64,000 bases of DNA from Candidatus Omnitrophota bacterium (GTDB taxonomy: Bacteria > Omnitrophota > Gorgyraeia > Gygaellales > Profunditerraquicolaceae): NCBI GenBank assembly GCA_023227925.1, contig JALOCE010000001.1, positions 539-64,538 of the forward strand, written 5' to 3'. The first letter of the stretch is position 1. Each line of letters begins with the position of its first letter. A model generated the notes under the pieces. The model did no database searches, was not told the DNA's origin, and saw nothing but the letters and a program-made list of their open reading frames with translations. Shown here piece after piece: positions 45,566 through 62,016 of the stretch. A program made the position numbers and the translations under genes.

Positions 45566-46805
45566 GACTTGCCGCGTTTGCGGTTCTTCAGCATTGACTA
45601 AAGTGATTGATTTGGGCAAGCAGTATCTACAGGGGTCATTTATCAAATCTGGTAGGTCTATGCCGCCATTACGTAAGATGCCGACATCGCTTGTGCGTTG
45701 TGACCCGATGAAAGCAGAAAACGCCTGCGGGCTGCTGCAGATGGCCTTTACGCTCCCGCCGGAAATACTTTATTCTACTTACTGGTACCGTTCCGGCACT
45801 AATCAGACTATGCGTAGCCATCTACGGGAGATCGCTGAAGAAGCCGCAAGTTTAATAGAAAAGAAAGACGCCCGTGTCCTTGATATCGGCTGTAATGACG
45901 GGACCCTCTTGAGTCATTATCCTGTTGGATTCCTTAAGTTCGGGATTGACCCTTCGGATATCGCAAAAGATGTTAAAGGGGATATAAAGATCGTCCAGGA
46001 CCTTTTTCCTTCCGAGGAACTGGATAAGGAGTCCGGCGGAAAGCCGTATGATATTATTACGGCGATTGCCATGTTTTACGATTTGGAGGATCCCGTTGGG
46101 TTTGTAAAAAGCATTAAGAAACACCTTGCTTCTGAAGGCATATGGATTTTTGAGATGTCGTATATGCCGAATATGCTAAAGATGAATTCTTACGATACGA
46201 TTTGTCATGAACACTTAGAATATTACAGCCTTGCGGTCATCGAATACATCCTTAAAAAAGCGGATATGAAGATAGTGAAGGTTGCGCTTAATGATACCAA
46301 TGGCGGCAGCATCCGCTGTTACGCTACCCATATAGATAATTTTAGCTTTAAGAAACACGAATATGAAGGCGAATTGAAATTATTACGCCGCCAAGAGCTT
46401 GATATGGAACTCGAAACCGATAAGCCTTACCAGGATTTCCAAAAACGCATAGAAAAACACAAAGAGAAATTATCCGGTCTGCTTAAAAAATTAAAGCGTC
46501 AAGGTAAGGCTATACATGTTTACGGCGCATCCACTAAAGGTAATACCATCCTGCAGTTTTGTGGCATTGATAAGACGACCATTGATTTTGCCGCAGATAG
46601 GAATCCGGATAAATACGGTGCGCGCACTATTGGTACGGATATACCGATAATAAGCGAGGAAGAATCAAGAAAGATGAATCCGGATTACTACCTGGTTTTA
46701 CCCTGGCATTTCAGGGAAGAGTTCCTGGAAAGAGAAAAAGGGACTTTAGATAAAGGCATTGGCATGATTTTTCCTTTGCCTTCGATTGAGATCGTAAAGC
46801 GATAA
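45546..46805 (+). CDS. Sugar C-methyltransferase family (TylCIII/TcaB9-like: zinc ribbon plus MTase plus C-methyltransferase C-domain)
   Basis: N-terminal CRVCGSS zinc-ribbon, VLDIGCNDGTLL motif I, and a C-terminal domain of the right size with ICHEHLEYYS. Confidence 0.65.
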   Translation: MHLIHRKTCRVCGSSALTKVIDLGKQYLQGSFIKSGRSMPPLRKMPTSLVRCDPMKAENACGLLQMAFTLPPEILYSTYWYRSGTNQTMRSHLREIAEEAASLIEKKDARVLDIGCNDGTLLSHYPVGFLKFGIDPSDIAKDVKGDIKIVQDLFPSEELDKESGGKPYDIITAIAMFYDLEDPVGFVKSIKKHLASEGIWIFEMSYMPNMLKMNSYDTICHEHLEYYSLAVIEYILKKADMKIVKVALNDTNGGSIRCYATHIDNFSFKKHEYEGELKLLRRQELDMELETDKPYQDFQKRIEKHKEKLSGLLKKLKRQGKAIHVYGASTKGNTILQFCGIDKTTIDFAADRNPDKYGARTIGTDIPIISEEESRKMNPDYYLVLPWHFREEFLEREKGTLDKGIGMIFPLPSIEIVKR

Positions 46806-46828: not shown

Positions 46829-47680
46829 ATGAAAGAAAAAATTATAAAAGCTATATCTTGGCTGGTAAATAATCCTCTGCTTTTTTTTATGCATTCTATT
46901 GTGCAGGCCAGGAAATTAATACCGTTACCAAGCTCTCCCGTAAAAAAAGCGATTAACGGGGTAGTATTCGAGTTTGATTTTAGTTATGATCCCGCAATAA
47001 AAAGTATGTATATAGGCGGGTATGAATTAGATACGGTGCAGGCCTTAAAAAAATATATAAAAAAGGGAGATACGGTTATCGATGCAGGCGCAAATATCGG
47101 TTATTTGTCGGCTAATATTGCCGGATTCGTTGGAAAAACAGGCCAAGTCCATAGCTTTGAGCCAGTCCCCCAATATTTCGCAAGATCGAAGAAACTGAGC
47201 ATGATGAACCCGGAATATAAGATCCTGGTAAATCAATCGGCTTTGGGTGATAGAGAGGGGATCGTAAATATTAAAGTTACAAGCCAGCGGAATATCGGGT
47301 TTAATACCATAGTCCCCGGTTCTATGTCGAATGAAAAAAAGATCAAAGAAATACTTCAGGTGCCGATCGGCAGGCTGGATGATTATATCAAAGAAAAATC
47401 GCTGGATAATATATCGCTGATAAAGATCGATGTGGAAGGATATGAGTTCCCGGTTTTAAAAGGGCTCAGCGGCTATCTTGATAACGCAAAGAGATATCCG
47501 GTTATAATCTGTGAAATCGTTCCGTCTGTTTATGCATTGATGGGGCATAAGCTCGGAGAGCTATCCGAGTATATGCAAAAGTATACTTATGATGCGTATA
47601 GTTTAATTAACCATAATAAAAAAATAGATATTTCAAAATTAAGACGTATCTCTGAGGTAGTATTTATACCGGCAAGATAA
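46829..47680 (+). CDS. FkbM-family methyltransferase
   Basis: VIDAGANIGYLS and FEPVP motifs, and overall length. Confidence 0.65.
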   Translation: MKEKIIKAISWLVNNPLLFFMHSIVQARKLIPLPSSPVKKAINGVVFEFDFSYDPAIKSMYIGGYELDTVQALKKYIKKGDTVIDAGANIGYLSANIAGFVGKTGQVHSFEPVPQYFARSKKLSMMNPEYKILVNQSALGDREGIVNIKVTSQRNIGFNTIVPGSMSNEKKIKEILQVPIGRLDDYIKEKSLDNISLIKIDVEGYEFPVLKGLSGYLDNAKRYPVIICEIVPSVYALMGHKLGELSEYMQKYTYDAYSLINHNKKIDISKLRRISEVVFIPAR

Positions 47681-47702: not shown

Positions 47703-48590
47703 ATGAGCAATTTATATGATGATATAGCCATAGATATTGAAAAGGCGCACGAATTATTGAATGCGAATTCCATCGAGTGCAGCAACAGGGAGTCGTATTT
47801 AGGCCTTGCGCATAAATTTTTATATAAACTAAAGCTTTATAATAAGTTTGTTGATGCCGGATTGATCAGGTATTGGTTTAACGAGTTTTCTGAATACTGG
47901 AGCTCTGTATTAAAGGGAAGGCCGTTACAACTACACGACTTTTTTTATTTGTATTCTTCCTACAGGACTAAATTCCAATACATTTCCGTCAAAGAAAATG
48001 CAAGCAAACAGGAATTCTTATATGCCTGGCAGAGATACGAAAATATCTACCTGACACTTTCCTGTGTTTATAAAAATGCCCTGCAACCATTCTTGTGCTA
48101 TCATTTTTTACCGTTCTTAAAAATGAAAAGGAGGGGTAACATACTTGAATATGGCTGTGGCATAGCCCCTATAATAACAAGTATGATCAAATGCAAAATG
48201 AATAAGTATCAATTTACTATTGCCGATATCAGAAATTATACGTACCATTATGCTAAATACCGCCTTAAACAGCATGGAGTAAAAACCATCGATATTATGC
48301 CATCCCAGGCGCCATATCTCGAAGATAAATATGATGTTATTTTCTTGATAAATGTTTTAGAGCATTTGCCTGCGCCTGCCGAAACGGTAGAGGCATTAAC
48401 GGGGTCTTTAAACAAGGGCGGTTTTTTGATATTTGATTATATCCTAAGTAAAGGCGAGGGGCTTGATACGTTGGAGTCGGTTAAACAAAGAAAGCAGGTA
48501 TTATCTTTTATAAACGATAATTATAGAATGATCAAAGGAGAACCAAAATATAACGAATCAATGGGAATAATAATAGTTCAAAAAGCATGA
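47703..48590 (+). CDS. Class I SAM-dependent methyltransferase
   Basis: ILEYGCGIAPI motif I and DVIFLINVLEHL. Confidence 0.6.
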   Translation: MSNLYDDIAIDIEKAHELLNANSIECSNRESYLGLAHKFLYKLKLYNKFVDAGLIRYWFNEFSEYWSSVLKGRPLQLHDFFYLYSSYRTKFQYISVKENASKQEFLYAWQRYENIYLTLSCVYKNALQPFLCYHFLPFLKMKRRGNILEYGCGIAPIITSMIKCKMNKYQFTIADIRNYTYHYAKYRLKQHGVKTIDIMPSQAPYLEDKYDVIFLINVLEHLPAPAETVEALTGSLNKGGFLIFDYILSKGEGLDTLESVKQRKQVLSFINDNYRMIKGEPKYNESMGIIIVQKA

Positions 48591-49783: not shown

Positions 49784-51223
49784 ATGAATATTTATTATTT
49801 TTTTAAAAAAAATGCCGTAGTAATTTACTTAGCTTTCTTTTTCTGTGTCTTTTCATTTGGCAGGGCATTCTCTGTCATGCATCTAGGCCCTGTCTATATT
49901 ACCGAGATCTTCTTGCTATTGATGATATTCTTGTTGACGGATAAATTCATGGCTATTTTTAAACTTCCGAATATATTCATGCTGTTCAGCATATGTTTTT
50001 TAATATTGCTGTTTCTTCATACGGTTATAGCCTTTATAAGATGTGATATACTTGCCCTAAGAGACATGGCAATTTTTAGTTACATTATTTTTTTACCAAT
50101 AACATTTATATTATTTTCACAAAAAAACCGGTTAAAAATATTTTTATGGACCCTTCTTGCCGCGAATATTTTAGGATTAGTCCTTGGGAGGATATTGCTT
50201 TATCGCAGCTATAATATACCAGCGTGGACGGAGTTTATTACACAGGCAAAAGCGTTTAATTATCTTCTCTATTACGGCATTTCCTTGTCTTTTTATACTT
50301 CCTTTTTTGACTTAATAATCAAACAAAAAAAACAAATTTTCTATCTCATTATTTTTTTATGCATATTTAATATATATATGCTTATTTTTTGGGGATTGAG
50401 GACTGCCTGGATCGCTTTGTTTGTTTTATCCTTATTCGCGTTATGCGTTTCAAAATGGAGAAAAATAATAAAATATTTACCGCTCCTTGTTTGTTTTTTT
50501 CTTGCCTTTTCTATAATTTCATTAACACTTAACGACTCCAAGGATATAAAAGCCGGAATAATCGATTCGAAAATGTCCAGTATGTTTTTCCTTTTTAAAA
50601 CATTGCTGAATAAGAGTGTTAATCCTGGGGCTACAGCTTCTGATCCAGGCAAGGATAAAGATCTAAACCCTGCTAAACAGCTTCCTCCTAAAAATACGCC
50701 TACTTCCGGCTTGAACGAGTCGTTTCTTGCAGTTGCCGGCTCTACCCGCAACCAGGATTTTAAAAATAGTTTTGCCAGCCTAAAATGGCGCTTTGATATC
50801 TGGGATGCGACAATGAAGACTAGTTCTAAAAGTATTATTTTTGGAAAAGGGTTTGGGTATTGGCCTATAACGGCTATGCCGACGACAGAAATTACGGCTA
50901 ATATGAAAATCAAGCCTGTGCATAATCACATCCTGACTATATTTTATAAAATGGGCTTTTTAGGGCTGTTTTTATTCTTATTGATTAATGTATACGTATT
51001 TTTGTTTGCTTTTAGGCATTTAAAGCAAACCAATTCGTTATTTATAAAGTCGTTCCTTACAGGCGCTTTGGGAAGTTTTATTTTCTGGCATACTATGGCA
51101 TTCTTCTTTGATGTCATTGATTCTCCTCCGACAAGTATTTTCCTCTGGATTATTATCGGGTTGATTTTTGCTTGCGTAGAAGCCGACAAGCAAATAACCG
51201 CATCAACATATGAAAAGGTATAG
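49784..51223 (+). CDS. Wzy_C-family polytopic membrane protein (O-antigen polymerase/ligase-like)
   Basis: At least 10 predicted TM helices. WGLRTAWIALF fits the Wzy_C core. There is a large loop rich in Pro/Thr/Asp/Lys (NPGATASDPGKDKDLNPAKQLPPKNTPTSG). Confidence 0.55.
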   Translation: MNIYYFFKKNAVVIYLAFFFCVFSFGRAFSVMHLGPVYITEIFLLLMIFLLTDKFMAIFKLPNIFMLFSICFLILLFLHTVIAFIRCDILALRDMAIFSYIIFLPITFILFSQKNRLKIFLWTLLAANILGLVLGRILLYRSYNIPAWTEFITQAKAFNYLLYYGISLSFYTSFFDLIIKQKKQIFYLIIFLCIFNIYMLIFWGLRTAWIALFVLSLFALCVSKWRKIIKYLPLLVCFFLAFSIISLTLNDSKDIKAGIIDSKMSSMFFLFKTLLNKSVNPGATASDPGKDKDLNPAKQLPPKNTPTSGLNESFLAVAGSTRNQDFKNSFASLKWRFDIWDATMKTSSKSIIFGKGFGYWPITAMPTTEITANMKIKPVHNHILTIFYKMGFLGLFLFLLINVYVFLFAFRHLKQTNSLFIKSFLTGALGSFIFWHTMAFFFDVIDSPPTSIFLWIIIGLIFACVEADKQITASTYEKV

Positions 51224-51250: not shown

Positions 51251-52948
51251 TTGGTTAGATGTGTATCTGGCTATAGTGACGATAATATATATTCTATGGA
51301 GAATATCCCAAAAGCTAAATTCATGAAGTTTTCGCACCTCCCAACTTTCTTATTGATAATCGGCTATCCTGTTTACTGGCTTGAATTATTTATTTTTAAT
51401 AAAAGAGACGGGACGGCTTCATTTTTGGCTCCTGCATTATTCTTGTCCTGCGCCATTTTAACGCTTATATATAGACGCCAGGCTGTTATTACAAATTATA
51501 GGTGGCTGAAATCGTTTTGGAGAAACAGTAATTTTATAATAAAATTAGTTTTAATTGTTTCGGCCGCTTGTATTTCGATAATTATTTTGACTGTCTTGTA
51601 TGCTTATTTATTACCACCGCACCTATCTCAGGAATTTGATGCATTGAATTACCATTTAAGCATACCCCGGCAGCATTTGATCCTTGGTAGTTTTGAGCAT
51701 ATCAGCTGGTCTTCTGCCGATCTTTTTCCTTTACCGGTCGATTTTGCGCTTGCGCCTTATTGGTTTGCTACTGCGCTACCGAATAAAATACCGCAGTTTT
51801 TTTTCCTTATCGGCCTTGTATTAGTGGCGGCGAACCTCCTGATGCGCCTGAGTAATGGCAATCGTTTTGGCGCCTGTTTGGCTGTCATCGCGATATTCGG
51901 TGCGCATTTTATCGGTATCCAAATGGGTACAGCCATGCTCGATACCGCCCTCGCATACCTTTTCCTGGCAGCCCTGGATAGCTTTCTTGAGGGTAACATG
52001 ATTCTGGCAGGGATAGAGGCAGCCTTTTATTTCTGGTCGAAATCTTTTATCCCGCTTCAGACCGGGTTAATCATAATGCTATTGTTATTTGCCTGGTTGA
52101 TTTTTAAAATTAGAGGTTTTAGAACTATCAATTGGAGTTTTGGCAGGCCGATAGAGCTAAAAGAAAAACAGGGTTATCTGCGTAATCTAAAATCTTTTAT
52201 TGTAGTTTTTCTTGTTTCTAGCGTTATTATCGCCGGGCCGTTTCTGGTTAAATCCTGGTATTATTCGGGGACACCTTTGTATCCGTTTGCCGCAGGCGCG
52301 CTAAAAATAAATAAGAATGTTGATGTGAATGACAAGCATTGGGAGTCTATTACCGATTCGGCAAAGACACATATTAACGCAAAAGATAGCTATGGGCACG
52401 GTAGGTCGTTTTTTGATTTTGTCCGTCATTTTTGGTTAATTGCCGTTCCCGAACAGGGAGTTAATAATAGCTACGATTACCCGTTAGGCCTTGTGTATTT
52501 AATTTTTCTTGGCCCTTTTCTATGGTTCCTGGTACAATCTCTCATAAGAAGAGAATTTGTAATTTTGCCGTTTTTAATCATTATTTACTGGGTTATTTGG
52601 TGGTTTGGTTCACAGCAGGCCAGATTCCTTTATGTGCCGGTCTTGTTAATGGTGATAACCGTTCTTTCATATTTAAAGAATCCATCAATTGTTTTTTTGA
52701 CATGTTTATCCTTTGCGCTTGTCTTTAATTGCCTTTCAGTATTTAGCGCGCATAAAACAGATCTTGGTTTGCAGAAAGAAGAAGTTTTACGCGCTAAAGA
52801 CAGGGAGCTTAGCCGGATGAGTAGTGATTACCTTAAGCAAGGCAGGCATGATACGGTTAGCTTTGCTTTTTATGACATCGCATACGCCCGTTTTCCGGTA
52901 AAGGTATCGGGAGTAAGGTCCGCATGGGTGCTAACTGATAATAAATGA
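51251..52948 (+). CDS. Polytopic membrane protein, candidate GT-C-type glycosyltransferase or polymer-modifying protein
   Basis: About 12 or more hydrophobic helices. No soluble-domain motif is recognisable. A more likely start is the ATG at 51296. Confidence 0.3.
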   Translation: MVRCVSGYSDDNIYSMENIPKAKFMKFSHLPTFLLIIGYPVYWLELFIFNKRDGTASFLAPALFLSCAILTLIYRRQAVITNYRWLKSFWRNSNFIIKLVLIVSAACISIIILTVLYAYLLPPHLSQEFDALNYHLSIPRQHLILGSFEHISWSSADLFPLPVDFALAPYWFATALPNKIPQFFFLIGLVLVAANLLMRLSNGNRFGACLAVIAIFGAHFIGIQMGTAMLDTALAYLFLAALDSFLEGNMILAGIEAAFYFWSKSFIPLQTGLIIMLLLFAWLIFKIRGFRTINWSFGRPIELKEKQGYLRNLKSFIVVFLVSSVIIAGPFLVKSWYYSGTPLYPFAAGALKINKNVDVNDKHWESITDSAKTHINAKDSYGHGRSFFDFVRHFWLIAVPEQGVNNSYDYPLGLVYLIFLGPFLWFLVQSLIRREFVILPFLIIIYWVIWWFGSQQARFLYVPVLLMVITVLSYLKNPSIVFLTCLSFALVFNCLSVFSAHKTDLGLQKEEVLRAKDRELSRMSSDYLKQGRHDTVSFAFYDIAYARFPVKVSGVRSAWVLTDNK

Positions 52949-52976: not shown

Positions 52977-54404
52977 ATGCAATTGCATGATTACGATAAG
53001 ATAAGAGATTATTTTGATTCCGTTGCTGATGAACGGCCTAAATGGCGTAAGAGGGCGGGTTATTTTCATAAGGAATTGAGGAGGTATGTGAAGTTTCTTA
53101 TCCCTGAAAATAGCTCTGTCCTTGAAATTGGCTGTGAAACTGGGGATTTACTTGCGCAGCTTTCTCCAAAAAGGGGAGTAGGCATTGATTCCAGCAGGAC
53201 TTTTATTGAAACGGCAGCAAAGAATTTTCCTCACCTTGAATTTAAATTAGGAGACCTGGACAATATAGAAAAACTGGAGATAAACGAAAAGTTTGATTAT
53301 ATTATCGTAGGCAGTGTTATAGGTTATGTGGATGACATCCAGAATGTCTTATCGGGCTTAAAGAAATTTTGTAAACCCGAAACAAGAATCCTGGTAAGTT
53401 ATTACAATTATCTTTGGGAGCCCATATTGAAGTTTGCGGAAATGATAAGATTAAGGATGAGGCGCCCGATACAGCACTGGCTTTCTACCAGCGACCTTGA
53501 GAATTTTTTATATATTGCCGGTTTCGAGCTGGTAAAGAAGAAAAACTATTTCCTCATACCTTTCTATGTCCCTTTATTATCCACATTTTTTAATAAGTTT
53601 TTCGCGAATTTAGGTTTTTTCAGGAAGTTATCTTTGGTGCAAATATTGATAACCCGTCTTCCGCATTGTGACAGGCAGGCAAAAGATTTTAGTTGTTCGG
53701 TAATAGTTCCCTGCCGGAACGAACGAGGCAATATCGAACAGGTTATTCTCAGGATGCCTCTTATAGGCAAGCATACCGAGATTATTTTTGTGGAGGGACA
53801 TTCTAAAGATGGGACCTATGAGGAATGTTTACGTGTGAAAAGTAAATATTCAAGCAGGGATATCAAGGTTATGCAGCAGGATGGAGAAGGCAAGGCGGAT
53901 GCGGTTAGGAAGGGGCTTTCTTATACGCAAGGAGATATTTTCATGATCCTGGACGCAGACTTGGGTGTTTCGCCTGAAGAACTGCCTAAGTTTTTCGATG
54001 CGCTAATATCCAATAAGGGCGAATTTATTAATGGCAGCCGCTTGGTCTATAGCAGAAATAAGCAAGTGATGCGTTTCCTGAATATTTTGGGAAATAAATT
54101 TTTTAGTTTCATGTTTACATTTCTTCTGGAGCAATATCTTAAAGATACGCTCTGCGGAACAAAGGCCCTATGGAAGCAAGATTACTATAGGATTCTGTCC
54201 AATCGTGAATACTTTACGGATATCGATCCTTTCGGTGATTTTGACCTTCTTTTCGGAGCCGCAAAATTAAACCTGAAGATAGTCGAAGTACCCGTACATT
54301 ACTATGAACGTAGCTACGGCTCTACGCAGATCAGAAGATTCAGGCACGGCTGGCTTTTATTGAAAATGGCTTTCTTGGCGATGGGAAAACTGAGGTTTAT
54401 TTAG
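52977..54404 (+). CDS. Fusion: class I SAM methyltransferase (N-terminal) plus GT2 dolichyl/polyprenyl-phosphate sugar synthase-like glycosyltransferase (C-terminal)
   Basis: N-terminal VLEIGCETGDLL and FDYIIVGSVIGYV. C-terminal CSVIVPCRNERGNIEQVI, ILDADLG and C-terminal TM helices typical of DPM1/ArnC-like GT2 enzymes. Confidence 0.7.
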   Translation: MQLHDYDKIRDYFDSVADERPKWRKRAGYFHKELRRYVKFLIPENSSVLEIGCETGDLLAQLSPKRGVGIDSSRTFIETAAKNFPHLEFKLGDLDNIEKLEINEKFDYIIVGSVIGYVDDIQNVLSGLKKFCKPETRILVSYYNYLWEPILKFAEMIRLRMRRPIQHWLSTSDLENFLYIAGFELVKKKNYFLIPFYVPLLSTFFNKFFANLGFFRKLSLVQILITRLPHCDRQAKDFSCSVIVPCRNERGNIEQVILRMPLIGKHTEIIFVEGHSKDGTYEECLRVKSKYSSRDIKVMQQDGEGKADAVRKGLSYTQGDIFMILDADLGVSPEELPKFFDALISNKGEFINGSRLVYSRNKQVMRFLNILGNKFFSFMFTFLLEQYLKDTLCGTKALWKQDYYRILSNREYFTDIDPFGDFDLLFGAAKLNLKIVEVPVHYYERSYGSTQIRRFRHGWLLLKMAFLAMGKLRFI

Positions 54405-56585
54405 GTGGACTGTAAATTCCTTTTTATCGAACCCGGAAGTTATTCGCTTGGATTAAATAAGGCTACACTATTCCCTCCTTTGGGATTGGTATATCTGGCA
54501 ACTAATTTGAATGATAGAGGTTTTAGCGCACAGATTTACGACGCATCTATAAAAAGATCTACGCCGCAAGAAACTTTGGCAATCGTTAAACAAAAAAAAC
54601 CCGAAGTGATCGGGTTAAGGATGTATTATTGTAATATCGACTGGGTAAAAGAATTAATAAAGCTCGTGCGCAATCTTGATTCCGGGATTATCGTTGGCAT
54701 AGGAGGGCCTTGCGCTTCTACTGAACCAAAGGCGACGATTAACAAAACAGGGGCTGATTTTTGCATGGCAGGAGAGGGGGAATTTGCTATCCTGGAATTA
54801 GCCAAGAATATTTATGCGCTTAGGCCTTATTATGAAGATGTCCCGGGGATCATGGCCAGGACAAATAATAACGGATATTATAGCGGTTCTCCAAATAACC
54901 GCATAAAAGATATCGACCGGATCCCTTTTCCCGATTATGATTTAGTAGGAGGTTTAGATCCTTATTCGCCAAGGACCAGGTATTCTCCCGCGGCCCCTAT
55001 TATTACAACTAGGGGGTGCGCATTTAAATGTTCATTTTGCGCAAGGCATGTTTTTGGTAATTTAGTGACCTATAGATCGGCTGAGAATGTTATCCAAGAA
55101 ATAGTTTTGTTAAAACAAAAATATGGGATTAGGCAAATAGATATTCTAGACGATAATTTTACAGTAGATAGAAATCACGCTCAACGGATCCTGGATTTGA
55201 TTATTAAAGAAAAGATCGGGCTTTCCTTTGACTTGAGATCGGGGGTAAGGCTGGAGTCTTTAGATAATGAACTTTTAATTAAAATGAGAAAGGCGGGTTT
55301 TTATAAAATAGCCTTTGGAATAGAGTCGGCAGATAAGAGAGTCCTGGAATTATGCAATAAACGGCTCGACCTTGATAAATTAAGAAAAACGGCATTATTT
55401 GCGAAAGATATCGGTTTTAAGACCTCCGGGTTTTTTATCATCGGCCTTCCGGGTGAAACTTTCCAAAGCGTAAGAAAAACGGTAGGATTGGCCCATGAAT
55501 TGAAATTGGATGTTGCTAATTTTTGTATGGCAACTCCTTATCCGGGCACGGAGCTCTTTGACTATGTAAAAAAACACGGGCGTTTTCTTTTTGACCCCGA
55601 GAAAAATTATGATTTTGGATTTTACGCAGGTAAACCATTCTATGCACTGCCTGATTTAGACGAGAAGGAAGTTTCCCGTAGATTTAGCTTTGCCTATCGC
55701 AACTTCTATAATATTTTTCAAATTTTGACAGATCTGTTCTCGATAAGAACTGTCGCAGAGCTAAAATGGTTCGCGGGAGCCGCTCTTTCGGTACTCAAGG
55801 GACAGCTATATAATTTATTTAAACTTACCCAGGTAAAGCATATCGATAATATAAATACGCTCGAGACTTTCGAATTGCATCGTAGGATAATCCGCCAGAA
55901 GCCGTTTCTTAAGAAAGTTTACCGGGATTGGTACAAAATGCTTAAGGATTCCATTAATGGTTTATCCCGGGGCACTATTATTGAATTAGGCAGCGGGGGA
56001 GGCTTCTTGAAAGAGGTAATCCCGCAGGCTTATACTTCGGATATTGTTTTAATGCCGGGCTTAGATTTGAATCTATCGGCATTAGACCTGCCATTTAAAA
56101 ATAATTCCATAAGCGCTTTTCTTATGCTTGATACCATGCACCACATTAATAAACCGGTAGTTTTTTTTAAGGAATTATCCAGATGCCTGAGGGGAGGCGG
56201 AAGGATCATTATGATAGAACCGGCCAATACATTATGGTCCAGGTTCATCTTTGTCAATTTTCATCAAGAAGATTTTGATGTGTCTGCCGGATGGGAATTT
56301 GAAACGAGCGGGCCGTTGTCTTCCGCGAATGGAGCTTTACCTTGGATAGTATTTTCGCGTGACAGAGATATATTCCTAAAAGAATTCCCGCAATTAAAAA
56401 TAAAGAGATTGCGTTACCACACCCCCTTACGTTATATCTTAAGCGGCGGCCTTTCTATGCGCCAGATTGCCCCTTCTTTTACATATGGGTTTTTTGGAGT
56501 TTTGGAGTTTTTAATTTCGCCGTTAAACAAATATCTTGGTATGTTTTTATTGGTGGAGATAGAGAAATGCGCAAATACGGATTAG
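54405..56585 (+). CDS. Fusion: B12-binding (class B) radical SAM domain plus C-terminal class I SAM methyltransferase domain
   Basis: GTG start. B12-like N-terminus (FLFIEPGSYSLGLNKATLFPPLGLVYLATNL), radical SAM TTRGCAFKCSFCARH, and C-terminal GTIIELGSGGGFLKEV ... GGRIIMIEP methyltransferase motifs. Confidence 0.7.
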   Translation: MDCKFLFIEPGSYSLGLNKATLFPPLGLVYLATNLNDRGFSAQIYDASIKRSTPQETLAIVKQKKPEVIGLRMYYCNIDWVKELIKLVRNLDSGIIVGIGGPCASTEPKATINKTGADFCMAGEGEFAILELAKNIYALRPYYEDVPGIMARTNNNGYYSGSPNNRIKDIDRIPFPDYDLVGGLDPYSPRTRYSPAAPIITTRGCAFKCSFCARHVFGNLVTYRSAENVIQEIVLLKQKYGIRQIDILDDNFTVDRNHAQRILDLIIKEKIGLSFDLRSGVRLESLDNELLIKMRKAGFYKIAFGIESADKRVLELCNKRLDLDKLRKTALFAKDIGFKTSGFFIIGLPGETFQSVRKTVGLAHELKLDVANFCMATPYPGTELFDYVKKHGRFLFDPEKNYDFGFYAGKPFYALPDLDEKEVSRRFSFAYRNFYNIFQILTDLFSIRTVAELKWFAGAALSVLKGQLYNLFKLTQVKHIDNINTLETFELHRRIIRQKPFLKKVYRDWYKMLKDSINGLSRGTIIELGSGGGFLKEVIPQAYTSDIVLMPGLDLNLSALDLPFKNNSISAFLMLDTMHHINKPVVFFKELSRCLRGGGRIIMIEPANTLWSRFIFVNFHQEDFDVSAGWEFETSGPLSSANGALPWIVFSRDRDIFLKEFPQLKIKRLRYHTPLRYILSGGLSMRQIAPSFTYGFFGVLEFLISPLNKYLGMFLLVEIEKCANTD

Positions 56586-56604: not shown

Positions 56605-58506
56605 ATGAATTACGTCCAGTTTGGGCTATTCATCTTTATTTTCTTTTCTATTCTTTTTTGTGGCATAGCGATTTACAGATTATTGGCAGGCAATAATTCC
56701 AGTTTAAATAGGGGCATTTATCTGGGCGAGACCTTACTTTTGGGCTCGATATTGCTTGTAGGGGAATTTTTGGCATTATCTTTATTTTCGCTATATAAAT
56801 TACCGTTCTTAGCGGCGATAGTAGCTTTAAATTATTTACTTTTCTTCAATAAGGATGTAAAGGGCGGTTTTGTGTCGCTATTCAAGCATCCGCATTTTGA
56901 TTTATTTAACACTGTATTTATTCTATTGATATCGGTACTGATTTTCAGGAATATGTATTTCCTTGTTGATGTTGATTCGGCTTCAACTTATCTTTTTACC
57001 CAGAAAGTATGGTTATTAAAAGGAACGAGTATTATCGGCAGCAATGCCATTGATATGAGGATATTCGCGCCTCAATTTGATACTATTTTTTATAGCTTGG
57101 GCCTGGTGTTTACAAATTTTGAAATTTTATTTCCGCAACTTATAAATATTTTTTGGAAGATAATCGTTCTTTTATTGGTTTACGGGTATACGAGTTACCG
57201 TTTTAACGGGCTCTGCGGTTTAGGCGCCACTATGTTAGTTCTATTTGATATGCATTTTTTCTTTTCAGGCGCAAATCAGTGGGTAATGCTTAACTGTGCC
57301 CTGGTGGCATTTATCTTTGCTGCCGCTTATAATTTTTGGGAAGCAAGGAGAAGCAATGATATTTTTCGTTTTGCTTTAGCCCTGATCTTTTTGGCGCAGC
57401 TGCCGGCGAATAAATATCAGATGGCCTATATATTCATATTCTTCTTAGGGGCAGGGGTCCTGATCCAGCCGCAACCCCTGGAGAAGATAAAAGAAGTCCT
57501 TACTTCAAAAAAATTAGCCCTCGGTATAGCGGGTAGTATTTTTTGCGCCTGCCTCTGGTATGTTAAAAATTGGATAGCTGTCGGCTTGCCTACATTCCCG
57601 ATATTCGCAGGCAATCTGAATGTTGGAGGCTGGACGCCGGAGCAATCCGATATTTTTATTAAATTTTTTACCGGTATAAGCCCTATGCTTTTTTTCAAGT
57701 ATATGACTTATCTTTTTATTTGGCCAGGCATAGTTTCGTCAAAAATTGTGATCATTTTTATATCCTTACTCCCTATAGTATTACTATTATTCCTTAATAG
57801 TGCGAAAAAAGATAAAGAGCATTTAATGGAATTATCATTCTGGTTAGGGATTGCGATATTAAGCGTAATGGGTATTTGTCTGGCCTGCCACCAGGATCCA
57901 CGTTACTATCGTTTCCCGATAGGTATTTTTTCTTTTGCTGCTATTTTTTCCATAGCGTTCATAATAGGGCAATTTTTTAAAGCAAACCGTAATCTGCTTA
58001 CGGGGATCATAGCCATTTGCATCGGCTTGTTAGGATACCCTATTATTTATAGCGAGGGAGGGCATTTTAGCCGCCCCACTTTTCAAGAAAACCTTGCAGT
58101 GCTTAGGGATCAGATCCATACAGACTACGCGATAAAGAAGCACTACCCTATAGCTTTTTCCGTTGCCATTGCTATGGAGAAGAATAAAAGGAAAACGGAA
58201 AACGCGGGATGGGGTTTAAGGGATAGTTTGAATTTCCCCACTTTTTATCTTCCCGTCCGGCCAATGGTATCATTGTGGCTTACTACGGTAATCAGATGGG
58301 ATTCATATGCGAACGAAACGTCGATCATCGAAGATTTGAAAAAAGCCGGCCTTGAGTGGATTATGGAATTAAGAGGTAACGATCTATTATTTCTGAGCCG
58401 GGAAGAATACGCCAAGGAAGCAGTTGCTTATAACCGTCGTCCCGAAAAGGTTTCTTACGATTACGGTTTCCCCAGGGAGCTGTCGCATATTAAATATGGA
58501 GATTAA
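56605..58506 (+). CDS. Polytopic membrane protein (about 14 or more TM helices), function unknown
   Basis: Strongly hydrophobic throughout with no soluble motif. Possibly a GT-C-like or polysaccharide polymerase/export component. Confidence 0.3.
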   Translation: MNYVQFGLFIFIFFSILFCGIAIYRLLAGNNSSLNRGIYLGETLLLGSILLVGEFLALSLFSLYKLPFLAAIVALNYLLFFNKDVKGGFVSLFKHPHFDLFNTVFILLISVLIFRNMYFLVDVDSASTYLFTQKVWLLKGTSIIGSNAIDMRIFAPQFDTIFYSLGLVFTNFEILFPQLINIFWKIIVLLLVYGYTSYRFNGLCGLGATMLVLFDMHFFFSGANQWVMLNCALVAFIFAAAYNFWEARRSNDIFRFALALIFLAQLPANKYQMAYIFIFFLGAGVLIQPQPLEKIKEVLTSKKLALGIAGSIFCACLWYVKNWIAVGLPTFPIFAGNLNVGGWTPEQSDIFIKFFTGISPMLFFKYMTYLFIWPGIVSSKIVIIFISLLPIVLLLFLNSAKKDKEHLMELSFWLGIAILSVMGICLACHQDPRYYRFPIGIFSFAAIFSIAFIIGQFFKANRNLLTGIIAICIGLLGYPIIYSEGGHFSRPTFQENLAVLRDQIHTDYAIKKHYPIAFSVAIAMEKNKRKTENAGWGLRDSLNFPTFYLPVRPMVSLWLTTVIRWDSYANETSIIEDLKKAGLEWIMELRGNDLLFLSREEYAKEAVAYNRRPEKVSYDYGFPRELSHIKYGD

Positions 58507-58522
58507 ATCACCATCAATAAAT

Positions 58523-59620
58523 ATGAGGGATAAAGAGCTAAAAAAATTCGATCTGTTCGGAGTTAATATCTCTGCGATAAACATGGAATATATCCTGGAG
58601 TCTGTAGAAAATTCAATTTTAAACAAAGATAGGATCTATATATCTACCTGCCCCGTAGGAACCGTGATAGAATGCCAGAAAGATGAACAGGTTTTAAAAA
58701 GCGTAAATTCTGCAGATTTAGTTACTCCTGACGGCATGCCGGTTGTCTGGCTCGGCAGATTAAAAGGACATAAGGATATAACCAGGGTTTACGGCCCTGA
58801 TCTTATGTGGGAAATCTGTGCAATTTCCGAAAATAAAGGTTATAGGAATTATTTTTATGGTTCGACTCCCGAGGTGCTTAGCGGATTGAGAAAAAGACTT
58901 TTAGTATGCCTCCCCGGTTTAAAAATAGCAGGTTATTTTTCTCCGCCCTTTTATCCCTTGACAGAGGAAGAGGATAAGAAGATCATTAATATGATAAACA
59001 ATTGCAAAGCTGATATATTATGGGTCGGCCTAGGTTCGCCAAAGCAGGACATTTGGATGCACGAACACAGGGATGCGATAGGCGCCCCGGTTATTATCGG
59101 TGTGGGTGCTGCCTTTGATTTTTTATCCGGCCTGAAAAAACAGGCACCGCGCTGGATGCAGCGTTCGGGGTTGGAATGGCTTTTTCGTTTGATCACTGAG
59201 CCTAAGAGATTATGGAAACGTTATCTTCTGGGAAACTCGCTGTTTATGATTTTAATTGTCAGGGGCCTGATAAGGAAGGTAAAGGAGGAGTTCATGAAAG
59301 ATAAAATAATATTACCCGCTTTTGTTATAACGCTTTTCTTTCTGATGATATTTATAATTGTCTATATGAAAAACCAGGCAGCCTATATGGACAATCTGGA
59401 TGAAAGGGTAAGATTCTTGATGGGTAAAATAACCTCAACTTCAGATTTTAAGAAAGAAAAATCAATGGTTAGTGAGGCTGATAAGGCAGAAAACAAGAGC
59501 CTTCCGCAACAACTGGCAATTATCAGGCAAGATCTTAGTGACCTTCAAGCCAAATATGCTGCTATGGCTGATTCGCAAGAAAAGGAAGGTGCTAAAAAGA
59601 AGAAGAAAAAAGGAAATTGA
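58523..59620 (+). CDS. WecB/TagA/CpsF-family (GT26) glycosyltransferase with unusual C-terminal TM plus coiled-coil plus poly-Lys extension
   Basis: VTPDGMPVVWL and ILWVGLGSPKQDIWM core motifs. The ATG at 58523 follows the upstream stop. An in-frame C-terminal tail of about 110 aa carries one TM helix (ILPAFVITLFFLMIFIIVY), a coiled-coil-like segment, and a KKKKKKGN end. Confidence 0.75.
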   Translation: MRDKELKKFDLFGVNISAINMEYILESVENSILNKDRIYISTCPVGTVIECQKDEQVLKSVNSADLVTPDGMPVVWLGRLKGHKDITRVYGPDLMWEICAISENKGYRNYFYGSTPEVLSGLRKRLLVCLPGLKIAGYFSPPFYPLTEEEDKKIINMINNCKADILWVGLGSPKQDIWMHEHRDAIGAPVIIGVGAAFDFLSGLKKQAPRWMQRSGLEWLFRLITEPKRLWKRYLLGNSLFMILIVRGLIRKVKEEFMKDKIILPAFVITLFFLMIFIIVYMKNQAAYMDNLDERVRFLMGKITSTSDFKKEKSMVSEADKAENKSLPQQLAIIRQDLSDLQAKYAAMADSQEKEGAKKKKKKGN

Positions 59621-59646
59621 CAAAAGCCCTCTTTCTGCGATAATAT
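59617..59646 (+). promoter_or_regulatory. Putative sigma70-type promoter (TTGACA, 18-nt spacer, TAATAT) overlapping the stop codon of the GT26 gene
   Basis: The -35 box TTGACA is at 59617-59622 and the -10 box TAATAT at 59641-59646. An AAAGGAA RBS and the ATG at 59676 follow. Confidence 0.4.
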
Positions 59647-59663
59647 TTTATCTAAATTTATAA

Positions 59664-60611
<948 letters not shown>

Positions 60612-60615
60612 ATAT

Positions 60616-62016
60616 ATGTATAGGGATAAAAGAAAGATATATGCATTATACCTCATCATTGATATCATCCTTATCGGGTTTTCATATTATCTCGCCTATT
60701 TTTTAAGAGACAACCTGCACTTTATCCCCATATCTATGGCTACGTTCCGGCAATATTCCTTAGCGTTTATTTTGTGGGGGGTCAGCCTTATCTTTTTCTT
60801 GAATAATTTCCATTTATATTATACGGACCGGTCTTTGACTATTCCCCAGGAGGCTTATCTTGTTTTTAAGGCTGTTTTTTATTCTGCGATCTTATCGGCA
60901 GTTATTATCTTCGGATTTAAGATAGAGTTCTTTTCGCGTATAATTTTCCTTTCAGTCAGCGTCTTATTATTCATAAATTTATCTTCTTGGCGCATACTTA
61001 AAAGGATTTTTATCCGATATACGATTATAAGGGGATATAATAATTTTAATGTTTTGATCATAGGCGCGGGAAGGAGCGGTAAAGAGTTAGCCGATGAAAT
61101 AAAAGACAACCCTTATCTGGGGCTTAAGATAGTAGGTTTTTTAGACGATTATAAAACTGATGCTATTAATGGTTATAGGGTTATAGGAAAAATCCAGGAT
61201 CTGGAGAAGATAGCCCAAAAAAAGTTTGTGGATGAAATATATATCACTATCCCTTCCGAACGTAAAGTCGTTTCTGAGATCCTGTCAAAAGCTAATCTGC
61301 TTGGTAAAACAGTAAGGGTTTTAGCGGATAATTTTGAAATACCGAGATATCAGGTAAAAATTAATTATCTCGGTTTTCTTCCTTTGGTAAGTTATTATGA
61401 GAAAGGCATACATGGGACCGATTCTTTGATCAAAAGGGCGTTGGATATGATTATAGCTACTACGGCTATGACAATACTCCTTCCTTTGCTTTTGATAATT
61501 TCTTTTCTTATCAAGCTTGATAGCCCCGGCCCTATGCTTTATGTTTCCAGGCGTGCCGGCAGGAAAGGAAGGATCTTTAATTTTTATAAATTCCGTTCCA
61601 TGTACAAAGATGCCGATAGGGAGAAGGAGACATTGCGCCATAAATCGGAAGTCAAAGGCCCGATATTTAAGATAAAGAACGATCACCGTATTACCCGCCT
61701 GGGAAAGTTCCTGAGAAGGTATAGCCTGGATGAATTGCCCCAGCTGATCAATGTATTAAAAGGAGATATGACGCTGGTGGGGCCCCGTCCTCTTCCCGTT
61801 GACGAAAGTGAGCAATGCCAGGAGTGGCAATTGCGCCGCCTGGATGTAAAACCCGGGATCGCCTGTATGGCGCAAGTCCGGGGAAGGAGCGATATAAGTT
61901 TCTATAAATGGATGAAATGGGATCTATGGTATATTGATAACTGGTCTTTAGGCCTGGATTTTAATATAATGTTCTGGATGGTGCCTGCGGTATTAAAAAG
62001 AAAAGGTGCTTATTAA
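60616..62016 (+). CDS. Polyprenyl-phosphate sugar-1-phosphate transferase (WbaP/EpsB-type initiating bacterial sugar transferase)
   Basis: N-terminal TM helices, a central Rossmann-like domain, and C-terminal catalytic domain motifs IFNFYKFRSM and TLVGPRPLPVDE. Confidence 0.85.
   Translation: MYRDKRKIYALYLIIDIILIGFSYYLAYFLRDNLHFIPISMATFRQYSLAFILWGVSLIFFLNNFHLYYTDRSLTIPQEAYLVFKAVFYSAILSAVIIFGFKIEFFSRIIFLSVSVLLFINLSSWRILKRIFIRYTIIRGYNNFNVLIIGAGRSGKELADEIKDNPYLGLKIVGFLDDYKTDAINGYRVIGKIQDLEKIAQKKFVDEIYITIPSERKVVSEILSKANLLGKTVRVLADNFEIPRYQVKINYLGFLPLVSYYEKGIHGTDSLIKRALDMIIATTAMTILLPLLLIISFLIKLDSPGPMLYVSRRAGRKGRIFNFYKFRSMYKDADREKETLRHKSEVKGPIFKIKNDHRITRLGKFLRRYSLDELPQLINVLKGDMTLVGPRPLPVDESEQCQEWQLRRLDVKPGIACMAQVRGRSDISFYKWMKWDLWYIDNWSLGLDFNIMFWMVPAVLKRKGAY

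Follow-up and report, generated by a model that had tools for sequence, protein, structure and literature searches.

Cobalamin-type (class B) radical SAM enzymes, including TsrM, TokK, CysS, MgmA, GenK/GenD1 and Fom3, are built from a cobalamin-binding Rossmann domain, a radical SAM barrel with a CX3CX2C motif and a helical cap, and in TsrM and TokK the C-terminal cap region binds the substrate (PMC9204698). GenK and GenD1 C-methylate sugars, and CysS and TokK methylate iteratively; HpnJ, BchE and OxsB are non-methylases (PMC9204698). Fusions of a radical SAM enzyme with a class I methyltransferase are not mentioned in a review of the class (PMC9204698). The protein described here, from a Candidatus Omnitrophota bacterium, has the three common elements of the class B enzymes; unlike them it bears an extra, complete class I methyltransferase after the cap, and its gene lies in a cassette with a putative polyprenyl-phosphate GT2 and a GT-C-fold glycosyltransferase instead of an antibiotic or cofactor pathway.

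In hopanoid cyclitol-ether biosynthesis, the GT2 enzyme HpnI is followed by the B12 radical SAM enzyme HpnJ, which acts on the glycosylated hopanoid and performs sugar-ring chemistry, contracting the glucosamine ring (PMC9204698). The present locus likewise pairs a GT2 with a cobalamin-type radical SAM protein that may act on a lipid-anchored sugar. Unlike HpnJ, which has no fused methyltransferase, the radical SAM half scores at a quarter of the HpnJ cutoff and hopanoid genes are absent nearby; unlike HpnI, the GT2 resembles polyprenyl-phosphate sugar synthases and is itself fused to a methyltransferase.

Auxiliary enzymes that act on lipid-linked sugars include ArnD and DprE1/E2. Epimerases are further auxiliaries in the three-component systems, in which lipid-linked sugar donors are tailored and then transferred by a GT-C enzyme (PMC11127046). 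These systems (GtrA/B/V, ArnC/ArnE-F/ArnT and the pentofuranose systems of Kelly et al. 2024, PMC11127046) resemble our locus in combining a GtrB/ArnC/DPMS-like GT2 with a GT-C protein in a Wzy-type glycan locus. Unlike theirs, the GT2 has an N-terminal methyltransferase and no transmembrane helices, the auxiliaries are several methyltransferases and a B12 radical SAM protein instead of epimerases or deformylases, and the GT-C protein belongs to a family without a Pfam match. The genes between 49.8 and 62.0 kb include no recognised flippase of the GtrA, MATE or ArnE/F type, and for this reason the cassette is likened to a three-component system and not classed as one.

Architecture of the fusion gene

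The window, that is, the whole 64,000-nt stretch of DNA that was analysed, contains the fusion gene within a glycan locus (Table 1). It had been predicted that this gene joins B12-binding, radical SAM and class I methyltransferase domains in one polypeptide and starts at a GTG directly behind a methyltransferase-GT2 fusion gene; the open reading frame, Pfam matches, AF2 model and Foldseek searches bear this out. The frame has no internal stop over 726 codons, for which the random expectation, given the base composition, is ~3e-23. The GTG directly abuts the TAG of the preceding gene, with a GAGG 10 nt upstream, and the N-termini of homologs align from residues 3-5 of the fusion protein, which makes this start plausible.

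Table 1. Features of the fusion gene and of the surrounding glycan locus.
Feature	Position (nt)	Strand	Description
Wzy_C gene	49784..51223	+	O-antigen polymerase/ligase-type; context
565-aa polytopic membrane protein	51251..52948	+	Same cassette in L003, L028 and L030
MT-GT2 partner	52977..54404	+	N-terminal class I methyltransferase (residues 31-187) and DPMS/ArnC/GtrB-like GT2 (241-385), both from Pfam
Translation start region of the fusion	54392..54407	+	GAGG 54392-54395; stop TAG of upstream gene 54402-54404; GTG 54405-54407
Whole fusion gene	54405..56585	+	726 aa; GenBank MCK9602800.1; B12-binding, radical SAM and class I methyltransferase
Cobalamin-binding Rossmann domain	54468..54800	+	Residues 22-132; Pfam PF02310 (B12-binding), E 6.8e-18
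Radical SAM core	54999..55490	+	Residues 199-362; Pfam PF04055, E 9.6e-23; CX3CX2C at 55017-55040
Radical SAM C-terminal helical cap	55572..55820	+	Residues ~390-472; ends ...SVLKGQLYNLF, the terminus of stand-alone orthologs
Fusion junction	55800..55844	+	Residues 466-480; without stop, spacer or added linker
MT258 class I SAM methyltransferase domain	55821..56582	+	Residues 473-726; complete
633-aa polytopic membrane protein	56605..58506	+	GT-C glycosyltransferase fold; family without Pfam match
WecG/TagA-family glycosyltransferase, NAD-dependent epimerase and Bac_transf initiating phosphoglycosyl transferase	58424..62016	+	Context

The N-terminal half matches PF02310 with 65.1 bits (cutoff 32.1) and PF04055 with 81.6 bits (cutoff 29.5), and the Foldseek alignments to TsrM, TokK, CysS and OxsB extend over the cobalamin-binding region. 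Both motifs quoted in the original prediction were located: the radical SAM cysteines C205-x3-C209-x2-C212, carried by TTRGCAFKCSFCARH and invariant in the 28-sequence alignment of the radical SAM subfamily (A4), and the methyltransferase motif I ELGSGGG at residues 527-533 (nt 55983-56003). [quoted passage not shown] Both halves are folded in the AF2 model (mean pLDDT 92.4, pTM 0.79). No transmembrane helix is predicted, which suggests that the protein is probably cytoplasmic and at most peripherally associated with the membrane.

Reality and origin of the fusion

The same in-frame architecture was recovered from separate assemblies, which excludes a stop hidden between the domains. The identical protein is encoded both by an 88.6-kb NCBI MAG contig (MCK9602800.1) and by a 67-kb JGI contig (P0508); a relative with 81% identity (P0002, from SRR13727536) and one with 55% identity (P0003, from SRR22387949 and SRR22387800) are each encoded by one open reading frame, and the junction of the latter differs from that of the window by an indel of ~5 aa and is still in frame. 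An internal start or a frameshift at the junction was considered and excluded, there being neither Met nor spacer and the other frames being stop-rich. The fusion is real and rare: it forms one cluster at 50% identity among 1.84 billion representatives, and MT258 occurs as a fusion partner of the radical SAM subfamily only in this cluster.

The unfused arrangement is preserved elsewhere. In L015 the order is MT-GT2, radical SAM gene (483 aa), stop, a 36-nt spacer and MT258 (258 aa), and in L026 it is GT2, radical SAM gene, stop, a 26-nt spacer and MT258. The fusion is a merger of two adjacent genes, in one small Omnitrophota lineage, through loss of the stop and the short spacer. With only these 26-36 nt between the genes, a small sequencing or assembly error could in principle, as a frameshift or a chimeric contig would, turn two genes into an apparent single frame. 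This explanation is essentially refuted by the continuous frame at 100, 81 and 55% identity in separate assemblies with diverged junctions, by the complete loss of the spacer and of the methyltransferase start codon, and by the lack of a compositional break (GC 0.398 and 0.404 on either side of the join).

The MT258 methyltransferase half

Motif I, the PF08241 match and the modelled fold all assign the C-terminal domain to the class I (Rossmann-fold) SAM methyltransferases. Its predicted SAM-binding residues, ELGSGGG and TSD (544-546), are invariant or nearly so across 21 family members; strands and helices alternate over residues 524-721 of the AF2 model, where pLDDT is mostly >90; and its Foldseek matches include 3mgg, RebM (3bus) and the GPP C-methyltransferase 3vc2, with probability 1.0. 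At least 1,844 stand-alone relatives with 50-58% identity are collinear over 98-100% of the domain. The fused copy keeps TSD as well as the family invariants HH, MIEPANT, NFHxE, ANGA-PWI and HTP-RY-SGG, with the exception of H149, which is replaced by Q. By sequence it is a complete member of this large, uncharacterised stand-alone family, for which NCBIfam and the PDB hold no equivalog or solved homolog and give weak generic matches.

Some MT258 homologs lie in unrelated settings, such as among oxidative-stress genes in L005-L008, and the top-scoring stand-alone copy (P0124) is also surrounded by oxidative-stress genes, a context that is uninformative. A 257-aa methyltransferase downstream of the closest stand-alone radical SAM ortholog (L001, 63% identity) was considered as the ortholog of the fused domain and rejected because the two share 22% identity over 116 aa. 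The genes that flank it are 46-66% identical to their counterparts in the window, and the slot of MT258 is occupied in L001 by a different, NodS/BioC-like methyltransferase.

SAM is bound by both halves of the fusion, and class B enzymes need their methylcobalamin regenerated, so that MT258 could conceivably serve the radical SAM half by re-methylating cobalamin or as a SAM-sensing regulatory domain. In class B enzymes, SAM re-methylates cob(I)alamin within the same active site, and a helper methyltransferase is therefore unneeded; MT258 is also widespread and independent, mostly without a B12 radical SAM gene nearby, and is fused to GT-C proteins too. We regard a helper role as very improbable.

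The radical SAM half

Its motif, barrel domain and N-terminal Rossmann domain place this half in the cobalamin-type (class B) group by predicted fold. None of the named NCBIfam equivalogs compared (HpnJ, the Sden_1168 P-methyltransferase, BchE, ApyD, PhpK, HpnR, BzaD and the MgmA-type TIGR04014) is matched at the trusted cutoff; the best score is that of HpnJ (149 against 577.6), followed by Sden_1168 (148.6 against 575) and BchE (138 against 481), and the rest are lower. TsrM, MgmA (9ccb), AprD4, CysS, TokK and OxsB are the best sequence or structure matches, with an identity of 14-21% to any solved member, and no solved chain covers both halves of the fusion (Foldseek, TMq <= 0.50). AprD4 carries a cobalamin-binding domain yet is not a cobalamin-dependent methylase. 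The relatives are thus mixed, with TsrM, MgmA, CysS and TokK as methylases and AprD4, OxsB, HpnJ and BchE as non-methylases. This half falls below every curated cutoff and cannot be assigned as a methylase over a rearrangement or dehydration enzyme. The statement that the polypeptide unites two different methylation chemistries therefore goes beyond the architecture, and the radical SAM contribution to it is to be read as a candidate activity.

The radical SAM half might instead rearrange the sugar by radical chemistry, contract its ring, dehydrate it or epimerise it, with OxsB, AprD4 and HpnJ, which follows the GT2 HpnI, as analogues; MT258 would then be responsible for the sole methylation of the polypeptide. 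HpnJ is the top NCBIfam match, tied with the P-methyltransferase and close to BchE, two of the best structural matches (AprD4 and OxsB) point the same way, and HpnJ, BchE and OxsB are established non-methylases, HpnJ contracting the ring of the hopanoid glucosamine (PMC9204698). In 11 of 14 loci the subfamily is also tightly linked to a GT2 gene, a pairing that mirrors HpnI and HpnJ. These points are offset by the HpnJ score of 149 bits, far under 577.6, by the methylases among the other close structural matches (TsrM, MgmA, CysS and TokK), by a cassette that otherwise consists mostly of methyltransferases, and by the lack of hopanoid genes nearby. A non-methylase is in our view a minority possibility, though one of real weight, and C-methylation is preferred.

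Partner genes and the surrounding locus

The MT-GT2 protein encoded directly upstream is a putative polyprenyl-phosphate sugar synthase, as judged from its relatives: its closest solved relatives are the Dol-P-Man synthase 5mlz (E 2.9e-16), ArnC and GtrB, and its best NCBIfam matches are AglJ (below cutoff) and a Dol-P-hexose transferase. No transmembrane helix is predicted in it.

Downstream of the fusion, the 633-aa membrane protein is kept behind the radical SAM gene in L001, L003 and L012. It models as a GT-C glycosyltransferase: in the AF2 model (pLDDT 93.1, pTM 0.94), the top 25 Foldseek PDB matches are all GT-C proteins with probabilities of 0.95-1.0, including ALG9, AftA, ArnT, Emb, PglB/STT3 and Pmt. 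This is an assignment by fold similarity, with modest scores (TM ~0.4, E ~3e-4). The 565-aa membrane protein upstream of MT-GT2 may be a distant paralog of it, for which an hhalign comparison (E 4.5e-4, probability 33%) is suggestive only. Neither these two proteins nor their homologs have a Pfam match, even at E <= 10, and neither BLAST nor HMM comparison links them to PMT_2 proteins. Related cassettes contain PMT or PMT_2 genes, as immediate neighbours in L002 and L010. The window also contains NDP-sugar-modifying genes for a DegT aminotransferase, a TylC3-type C-methyltransferase and epimerases.

A conserved cassette and its fusion network

Recurrent neighbours were tallied over 57 loci. 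MT-GT2 is adjacent to MT258 in 40 of the 52 MT258 loci; a B12 radical SAM gene is nearby in only four and absent from the other 48, which indicates that the radical SAM protein is an accessory. Among the radical SAM relatives with at least 37% identity, an MT-GT2 or GT2 gene lies within ~3 kb in 11 of 14 loci and MT258 in 7 of 14; below 37%, none of 66 loci has the methyltransferase part of MT-GT2, and 12 have weak GT2 matches (22-34% identity). It is the polyprenyl-phosphate-type GT2, and not the NDP-sugar enzymes, to which the genomic linkage is tightest. Both halves of the fusion belong to a conserved and uncharacterised cassette whose core is MT-GT2 plus MT258 and which is completed by membrane glycosyltransferases of GT-C fold. 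It ranges over Omnitrophota, Planctomycetota, Nitrospirota, Elusimicrobiota, Thermodesulfobacteriota and Auribacterota, with a reduced form in some archaea; a literature search for the fusion or the cassette found no paper describing either.

The same families are joined in other combinations, with partner domains unlike those of the window. P0016 carries the radical SAM protein and MT-GT2 in one chain; P0025 fuses it to MT228, the two being separate genes in L017 and L022; P0249 fuses it to another methyltransferase, grouped with P0025 as MT228-type; and P0248 and P0266 join a PMT_2 (GT-C) protein to MT258. In fusions of the radical SAM subfamily the partner always stands behind the C-terminal cap. 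Several loci have MT258 ahead of the radical SAM gene or fused to a GT-C protein instead, and L001 has no MT258 within 8 kb. The occurrence of MT258 without the radical SAM protein, of the latter without MT258, and of other orders and fusions indicates that the two activities are not mutually dependent. The functional coupling implied by the original prediction is accordingly weakened: 48 of 52 MT258 loci are without a B12 radical SAM gene nearby, and another methyltransferase fills the slot in L001.

Proposed role of the fusion and alternatives

Taking the architecture, the adjacent-gene origin, the cassette association and the fold assignments as established, we propose, with a probability of roughly 55%, that the fusion is a bifunctional cytoplasmic enzyme of a Wzy-type glycan locus and tailors a sugar linked to polyprenyl phosphate; what we infer here are the substrate, the order of the steps and the methylase activity of the radical SAM half. 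At the cytoplasmic face of the membrane, the GT2 would charge polyprenyl phosphate with a sugar, and the class I methyltransferase domains, the fused MT258 included, would methylate heteroatoms. Where present, the B12 radical SAM half would modify the same lipid-linked sugar by radical chemistry, in all likelihood by C-methylating an unactivated carbon. Once the modified sugar is flipped, the GT-C enzyme would attach it to the surface glycan that the surrounding locus produces. The fusion itself may be a simple tether that holds two tailoring activities at 1:1 stoichiometry.

The tailoring might act elsewhere, namely on the nucleotide sugar before transfer, on the polyprenyl lipid, or on the finished polysaccharide or a protein. 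The NDP-sugar-modifying genes of the window (DegT, TylC3-type and epimerases) would fit the first of these, and many B12 radical SAM enzymes modify lipids, as do HpnR and the ladderane enzyme among the NCBIfam matches. The fusion of the radical SAM protein to a polyprenyl-phosphate-type GT2 in P0016 and the tightest linkage being to the GT2 instead of NDP-sugar enzymes argue for the lipid-linked sugar, and the fusion of MT258 to an integral-membrane GT-C protein in P0248 and P0266 puts MT258 at the cytoplasmic face of the membrane, so that we judge another substrate unlikely.

A different chemistry on the membrane-anchored sugar is conceivable by analogy to CysS, in which MT258 would O-methylate a hydroxyl and the B12 radical SAM half would extend that methyl to an ethyl or branched alkyl group, the fusion channelling the intermediate. 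One of the closest solved structures is that of CysS, which has been deposited in complex with 3-methoxy and 3-ethoxy substrates; CysS and TokK methylate iteratively (PMC9204698); and hardly any linker separates the two domains, whose model has a pTM of 0.79. The 48 of 52 MT258 loci without a B12 radical SAM gene nearby, the L001 radical SAM protein (63% identity), which lacks an MT258 within 8 kb and has another methyltransferase in that slot, and the several loci with MT258 upstream or on a GT-C protein all speak against such interdependence. Coupled alkylation, with an O-methyl group or a neighbouring carbon converted to ethyl or branched alkyl on the membrane-anchored sugar and delivered to the surface by an unrecognised GT-C family, is thus improbable, and independent tailoring of one lipid-linked sugar is preferred.

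Significance

By itself the fusion is a modest curiosity, its domains being of known types and its origin a simple merger of adjacent genes. Together with the fusions of the radical SAM protein to MT228 and to MTase-GT2 and of GT-C to MT258 in other lineages, it ties, in the manner of a Rosetta stone, four families into one pathway: a B12 radical SAM subfamily, MT258 (at least 1,844 members), MTase-GT2 and a Pfam-less family of GT-C fold, none of which has a characterised member. The compact four-gene set of the window would offer a tractable entry point for reconstitution. If the coupled chemistry were true, Omnitrophota and other uncultivated phyla would have a new type of surface-glycan modification. 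If the proposed model is true, these organisms would use a lipid carrier to deliver sugars that are heavily methylated, and possibly C-methylated, as decorations of their envelope glycans.

Table. Features of the window, with positions in nucleotides unless residues are stated
Feature	Position	Strand	Remarks
B12-binding radical SAM gene	3970-5463		
CBS-DegT aminotransferase	13121-14572		
B12-binding radical SAM gene	14574-16010		
Class I methyltransferase	16007-16891		
B12-binding radical SAM gene	16892-18568		
GFO/IDH/MocA oxidoreductase	18565-19518		
TylC3-type NDP-sugar C-methyltransferase	45546-46805		Methyltransf_13 zinc-binding domain and Methyltransf_14
FkbM-type methyltransferase	46829-47680		
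Class I methyltransferase	47703-48590		
MT-GT2 gene	52977-54404		class I methyltransferase and GT2
Fusion gene	54405-56585	+	726 aa, GTG start
B12-binding domain	residues 22-132		Pfam, above gathering threshold
Radical_SAM domain	residues 199-362		Pfam, above gathering threshold
Radical SAM cluster motif			C205-x3-C209-x2-C212
Methyltransferase motif I	residues 527-533		ELGSGGG
Methyltransf_11 domain	residues 557-603		Pfam, above gathering threshold
633-aa protein	56605-58506	+	immediately downstream of the fusion gene
WecG/TagA	58424-59620		398 aa, TTG start, mechanical call

The fusion gene and its product

In the fusion protein a cobalamin-type radical SAM module is joined to a class I methyltransferase, both of them complete. 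They are encoded in one open frame of 726 codons, a stop-free run with p ~3e-23 at the base composition of the window. Its GTG start is directly abutted by the TAG stop of the upstream gene (54402-54404), as had been noted, with a GAGG 10 nt before the GTG. The Pfam assignments bear out the original observation of a B12-binding radical SAM region and a methyltransferase in a single chain, preceded by a gene (MT-GT2) that itself joins a class I methyltransferase to a GT2 domain. Both halves are well folded in an AlphaFold2 model based on 53 aligned sequences (mean pLDDT 92.4, pTM 0.79), and no transmembrane helices are predicted. In Foldseek searches the first two-thirds of the model matched cobalamin-dependent radical SAM enzymes, with TsrM (E 9e-25) followed by MgmA, AprD4, CysS, TokK and OxsB, and the final third matched generic class I methyltransferases; none of the matches was a solved chain covering both halves. 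On all sequence and fold criteria testable here, the protein belongs both to the cobalamin-dependent radical SAM group and to the class I methyltransferases; it falls in no named equivalog family.

The fusion is real. The protein is deposited as MCK9602800.1 ('radical SAM protein', on an 88.6-kb contig of a Candidatus Omnitrophota MAG), and a second identical copy lies on a 67-kb JGI contig. The same continuous architecture and flanking genes are found with P0002 (723 aa, 81% identity) and P0003 (718 aa, 55% identity, two SRA runs). A stop or frameshift hidden between the domains is excluded, because these homologs keep the same frame, the P0003 junction remains in frame although its sequence has diverged and is ~5 residues shorter, and GC content is equal on either side of the join. 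The fusion is also rare: in the database search for this architecture, an exhaustive HMMER search of 1.84 billion representatives, a full collinear match occurred in exactly one 50%-identity cluster (query 3-722 against P0003 3-717). Nearly all other relatives of the radical SAM half are stand-alone proteins of ~475 aa.

Origin by merger of neighbouring genes

Stand-alone ~258-aa methyltransferases (family MT258; at least 1,844 matches, 50-58% identity) align over their full length with the last 254 residues of the fusion protein, which retain the family's invariant ELGSGGG, TSD, HH, MIEPANT and SGG motifs; the join falls at the exact starting point of the free proteins. Two genomes carry the halves unfused in the same order: MT-GT2, radical SAM (483 aa), a 36-nt spacer and MT258 (258 aa) in a Thermodesulfobacteriota locus (L015), and GT2, radical SAM, a 26-nt spacer and MT258 in a Planctomycetales locus (L026). 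The window gene therefore arose by lineage-specific merger of adjacent radical SAM and MT258 genes, and in the process lost the stop codon and spacer along with a few residues at the start of the methyltransferase.

Other mergers involve the same families. P0016 (942 aa) joins radical SAM, methyltransferase and GT2; P0025 (699 aa) joins radical SAM to MT228, a separate 228-aa methyltransferase family, its C-terminal part sharing 52% identity with the free MT228 of locus L102, and these two are separate genes in L017 and L022; P0249 joins radical SAM to a third methyltransferase. MT258 itself stands at the C-terminus of PMT_2 (GT-C) membrane glycosyltransferases (P0248, P0266) or of an unassigned domain with about nine hydrophobic segments (P0320), and precedes a domain with several such segments in P0308. 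Independent mergers, classical evidence of joint action, suggest that these families act together, and the GT-C fusions put MT258 on the cytoplasmic side of the membrane. P0248 and P0266, like L096 6753-8747 and L098 4293-6290, are of a type in which an integral-membrane GT-C bears a cytoplasmic SAM methyltransferase domain. Seven giant proteins of 1,800-2,600 aa (P0251, P0254, P0255, P0257, P0261, P0265 and P0282) have up to six separate query-matching stretches each, a pattern suggesting that cobalamin-type radical SAM modules are arrayed in tandem within single polypeptides; two tandem modules were confirmed by Pfam in P0241 and P0317.

Composition of the cassette

In a set of 80 genome loci that encode radical SAM domain relatives, those of at least 37% identity had an MT-GT2 or GT2 gene within ~3 kb in 11 of 14 cases and MT258 in 7 of 14. 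The 66 loci below 37% (mostly Chloroflexota) had no MT-GT2 methyltransferase part, and weak GT2 matches only (12/66, 22-34% identity). From the MT258 side (80 metagenome loci fetched, 52 with usable flanks), MT-GT2 lay next door in 40 of 52 loci, usually in the order MT-GT2, MT228, MT258, ~600-aa membrane protein, and a B12 radical SAM gene was near in only four. Clustering of all ORFs from 57 MT-GT2-carrying loci gave as recurrent partners MT258 (48), MT228 (22), a ~610-aa membrane protein (21), an IF-2B/MtnA-like isomerase (21), B12 radical SAM (16) and the 633-aa protein (6). MT-GT2 and MT258 therefore form the core of the cassette, with the radical SAM gene an accessory in a subset.

The locus with the closest stand-alone radical SAM ortholog (L001, 63% identity) is otherwise syntenic; the slot downstream holds a different, NodS/BioC-like methyltransferase, and MT258 is absent within 8 kb, so the two fused activities do not depend on each other. 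Coupled chemistry, in which O-methylation would precede a CysS-like radical extension to ethyl, is improbable because the two families occur independently.

In the cassette versions without radical SAM covered here, the gene immediately before MT-GT2 is usually of the IF-2B family (methylthioribose-1-P/ribose-1,5-bisphosphate isomerase-like), and a gene for a 677-aa FAD-binding protein is often present as well (21 and 12 of 57 MT-GT2 loci; 4713-5795 and 2622-4655 in L102). This hints at a pentose phosphate or a by-product of SAM as a possible source of the sugar; neither gene turned up in the part of the window compared (44-64 kb). MT258 members are not all tied to the glycan cassette. P0124 (L005-L008), among the best-scoring stand-alone homologs (58% identity), lies in a conserved oxidative-stress cluster with rubrerythrin, flavodiiron protein, desulfoferrodoxin and rubredoxin-flavin reductase.

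Partner genes and the glycan locus

The upstream GT2 domain is closest to archaeal Dol-P-Man synthase (5mlz, E 2.9e-16), ArnC and GtrB, and in NCBIfam it is most like AglJ and Dol-P-hexose transferases, all of which put a sugar onto polyprenyl phosphate. The 633-aa protein, conserved in L001, L003 and L012, belongs to a family of ~129 hypothetical proteins (P0388-P0507) whose few source-named members are all Omnitrophota. The window protein and two homologs had no Pfam match even at E <= 10, and faint PMT_2 matches appear in only a few members. Its model (pLDDT 93.1, pTM 0.94) has GT-C enzymes as all top 25 PDB matches, including ALG9, AftA, ArnT, EmbA/B/C, PglB/STT3, AftD, ALG3 and Pmt1/2, which use polyprenyl-phosphate-linked donors; the family is a candidate new GT-C family, and PMT or PMT_2 genes occupy the equivalent position in related cassettes. 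The 633-aa protein may have a distant paralog in the 565-aa membrane protein encoded upstream (hhalign E 4.5e-4, probability 33%).

The fusion gene sits between genes for a polyprenyl-P-sugar-synthase-like GT2 and a GT-C-fold transferase. The wider window is a Wzy-type surface-glycan locus, with GT4s, GT2s, many methyltransferases, Wzy_C, WecG, an epimerase and a Bac_transf initiating transferase. It is unusually rich in methyltransferases, among them the TylC3-type gene followed by FkbM-type and class I genes. Three further radical SAM genes, 24-27% identical to the fused half, bring the cobalamin-type total to four; two of them flank a class I methyltransferase gene and adjoin the aminotransferase and oxidoreductase genes, a group that looks like an NDP-aminosugar tailoring block. 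The WecG/TagA start is probably further downstream than called, because the ORF as called shares 83 nt with the end of the 633-aa gene; the protein has a long C-terminal extension ending in KKKKKKGN, and syntenic homologs are much shorter (341 aa in L001, 249 aa in L003). Of the 57 window ORFs with 150 aa or more, only three are on the minus strand, each inside a longer + strand ORF, and GC skew is positive across the 64 kb except in one 2-kb bin at 50-52 kb (-0.011).

Proposed pathway and significance

We propose that the GT2 would load polyprenyl phosphate with a sugar, that the heteroatoms of this sugar would be methylated by the class I methyltransferases, and that the radical SAM half would carry out a radical step on the linked sugar, most likely C-methylation; the tailored sugar would then be flipped and transferred onto the glycan by the GT-C. 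No flippase was recognised near the cassette. The radical SAM half reached no curated family cutoff, the best being HpnJ (149 bits against 577.6). An HpnJ-like rearrangement of the sugar ring is a serious rival, if clearly the less probable reading, for the HpnI (GT2)/HpnJ pair provides a precedent and the enzyme group also includes the non-methylases HpnJ, BchE, OxsB and AprD4. The scheme favoured here, with C-methylation as the radical step, resembles in its logic the Gtr/Arn-type 'three-component' systems, where auxiliary enzymes tailor a lipid-linked donor (PMC11127046). On this scheme the fusion would be a stoichiometric tether that brings no new chemistry.

A fusion of B12 radical SAM and class I methyltransferase, or this cassette, is described neither in the 2022 review of these enzymes (PMC9204698), where the words 'fused' and 'fusion' are absent, nor in the literature searched. 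The fusion event is a simple merger of adjacent genes whose domain types were already known, and analogous mergers of radical SAM with other methyltransferases exist in sister lineages. Greater value lies in having delineated the uncharacterised cassette around the fusion, which occurs widely across phyla.
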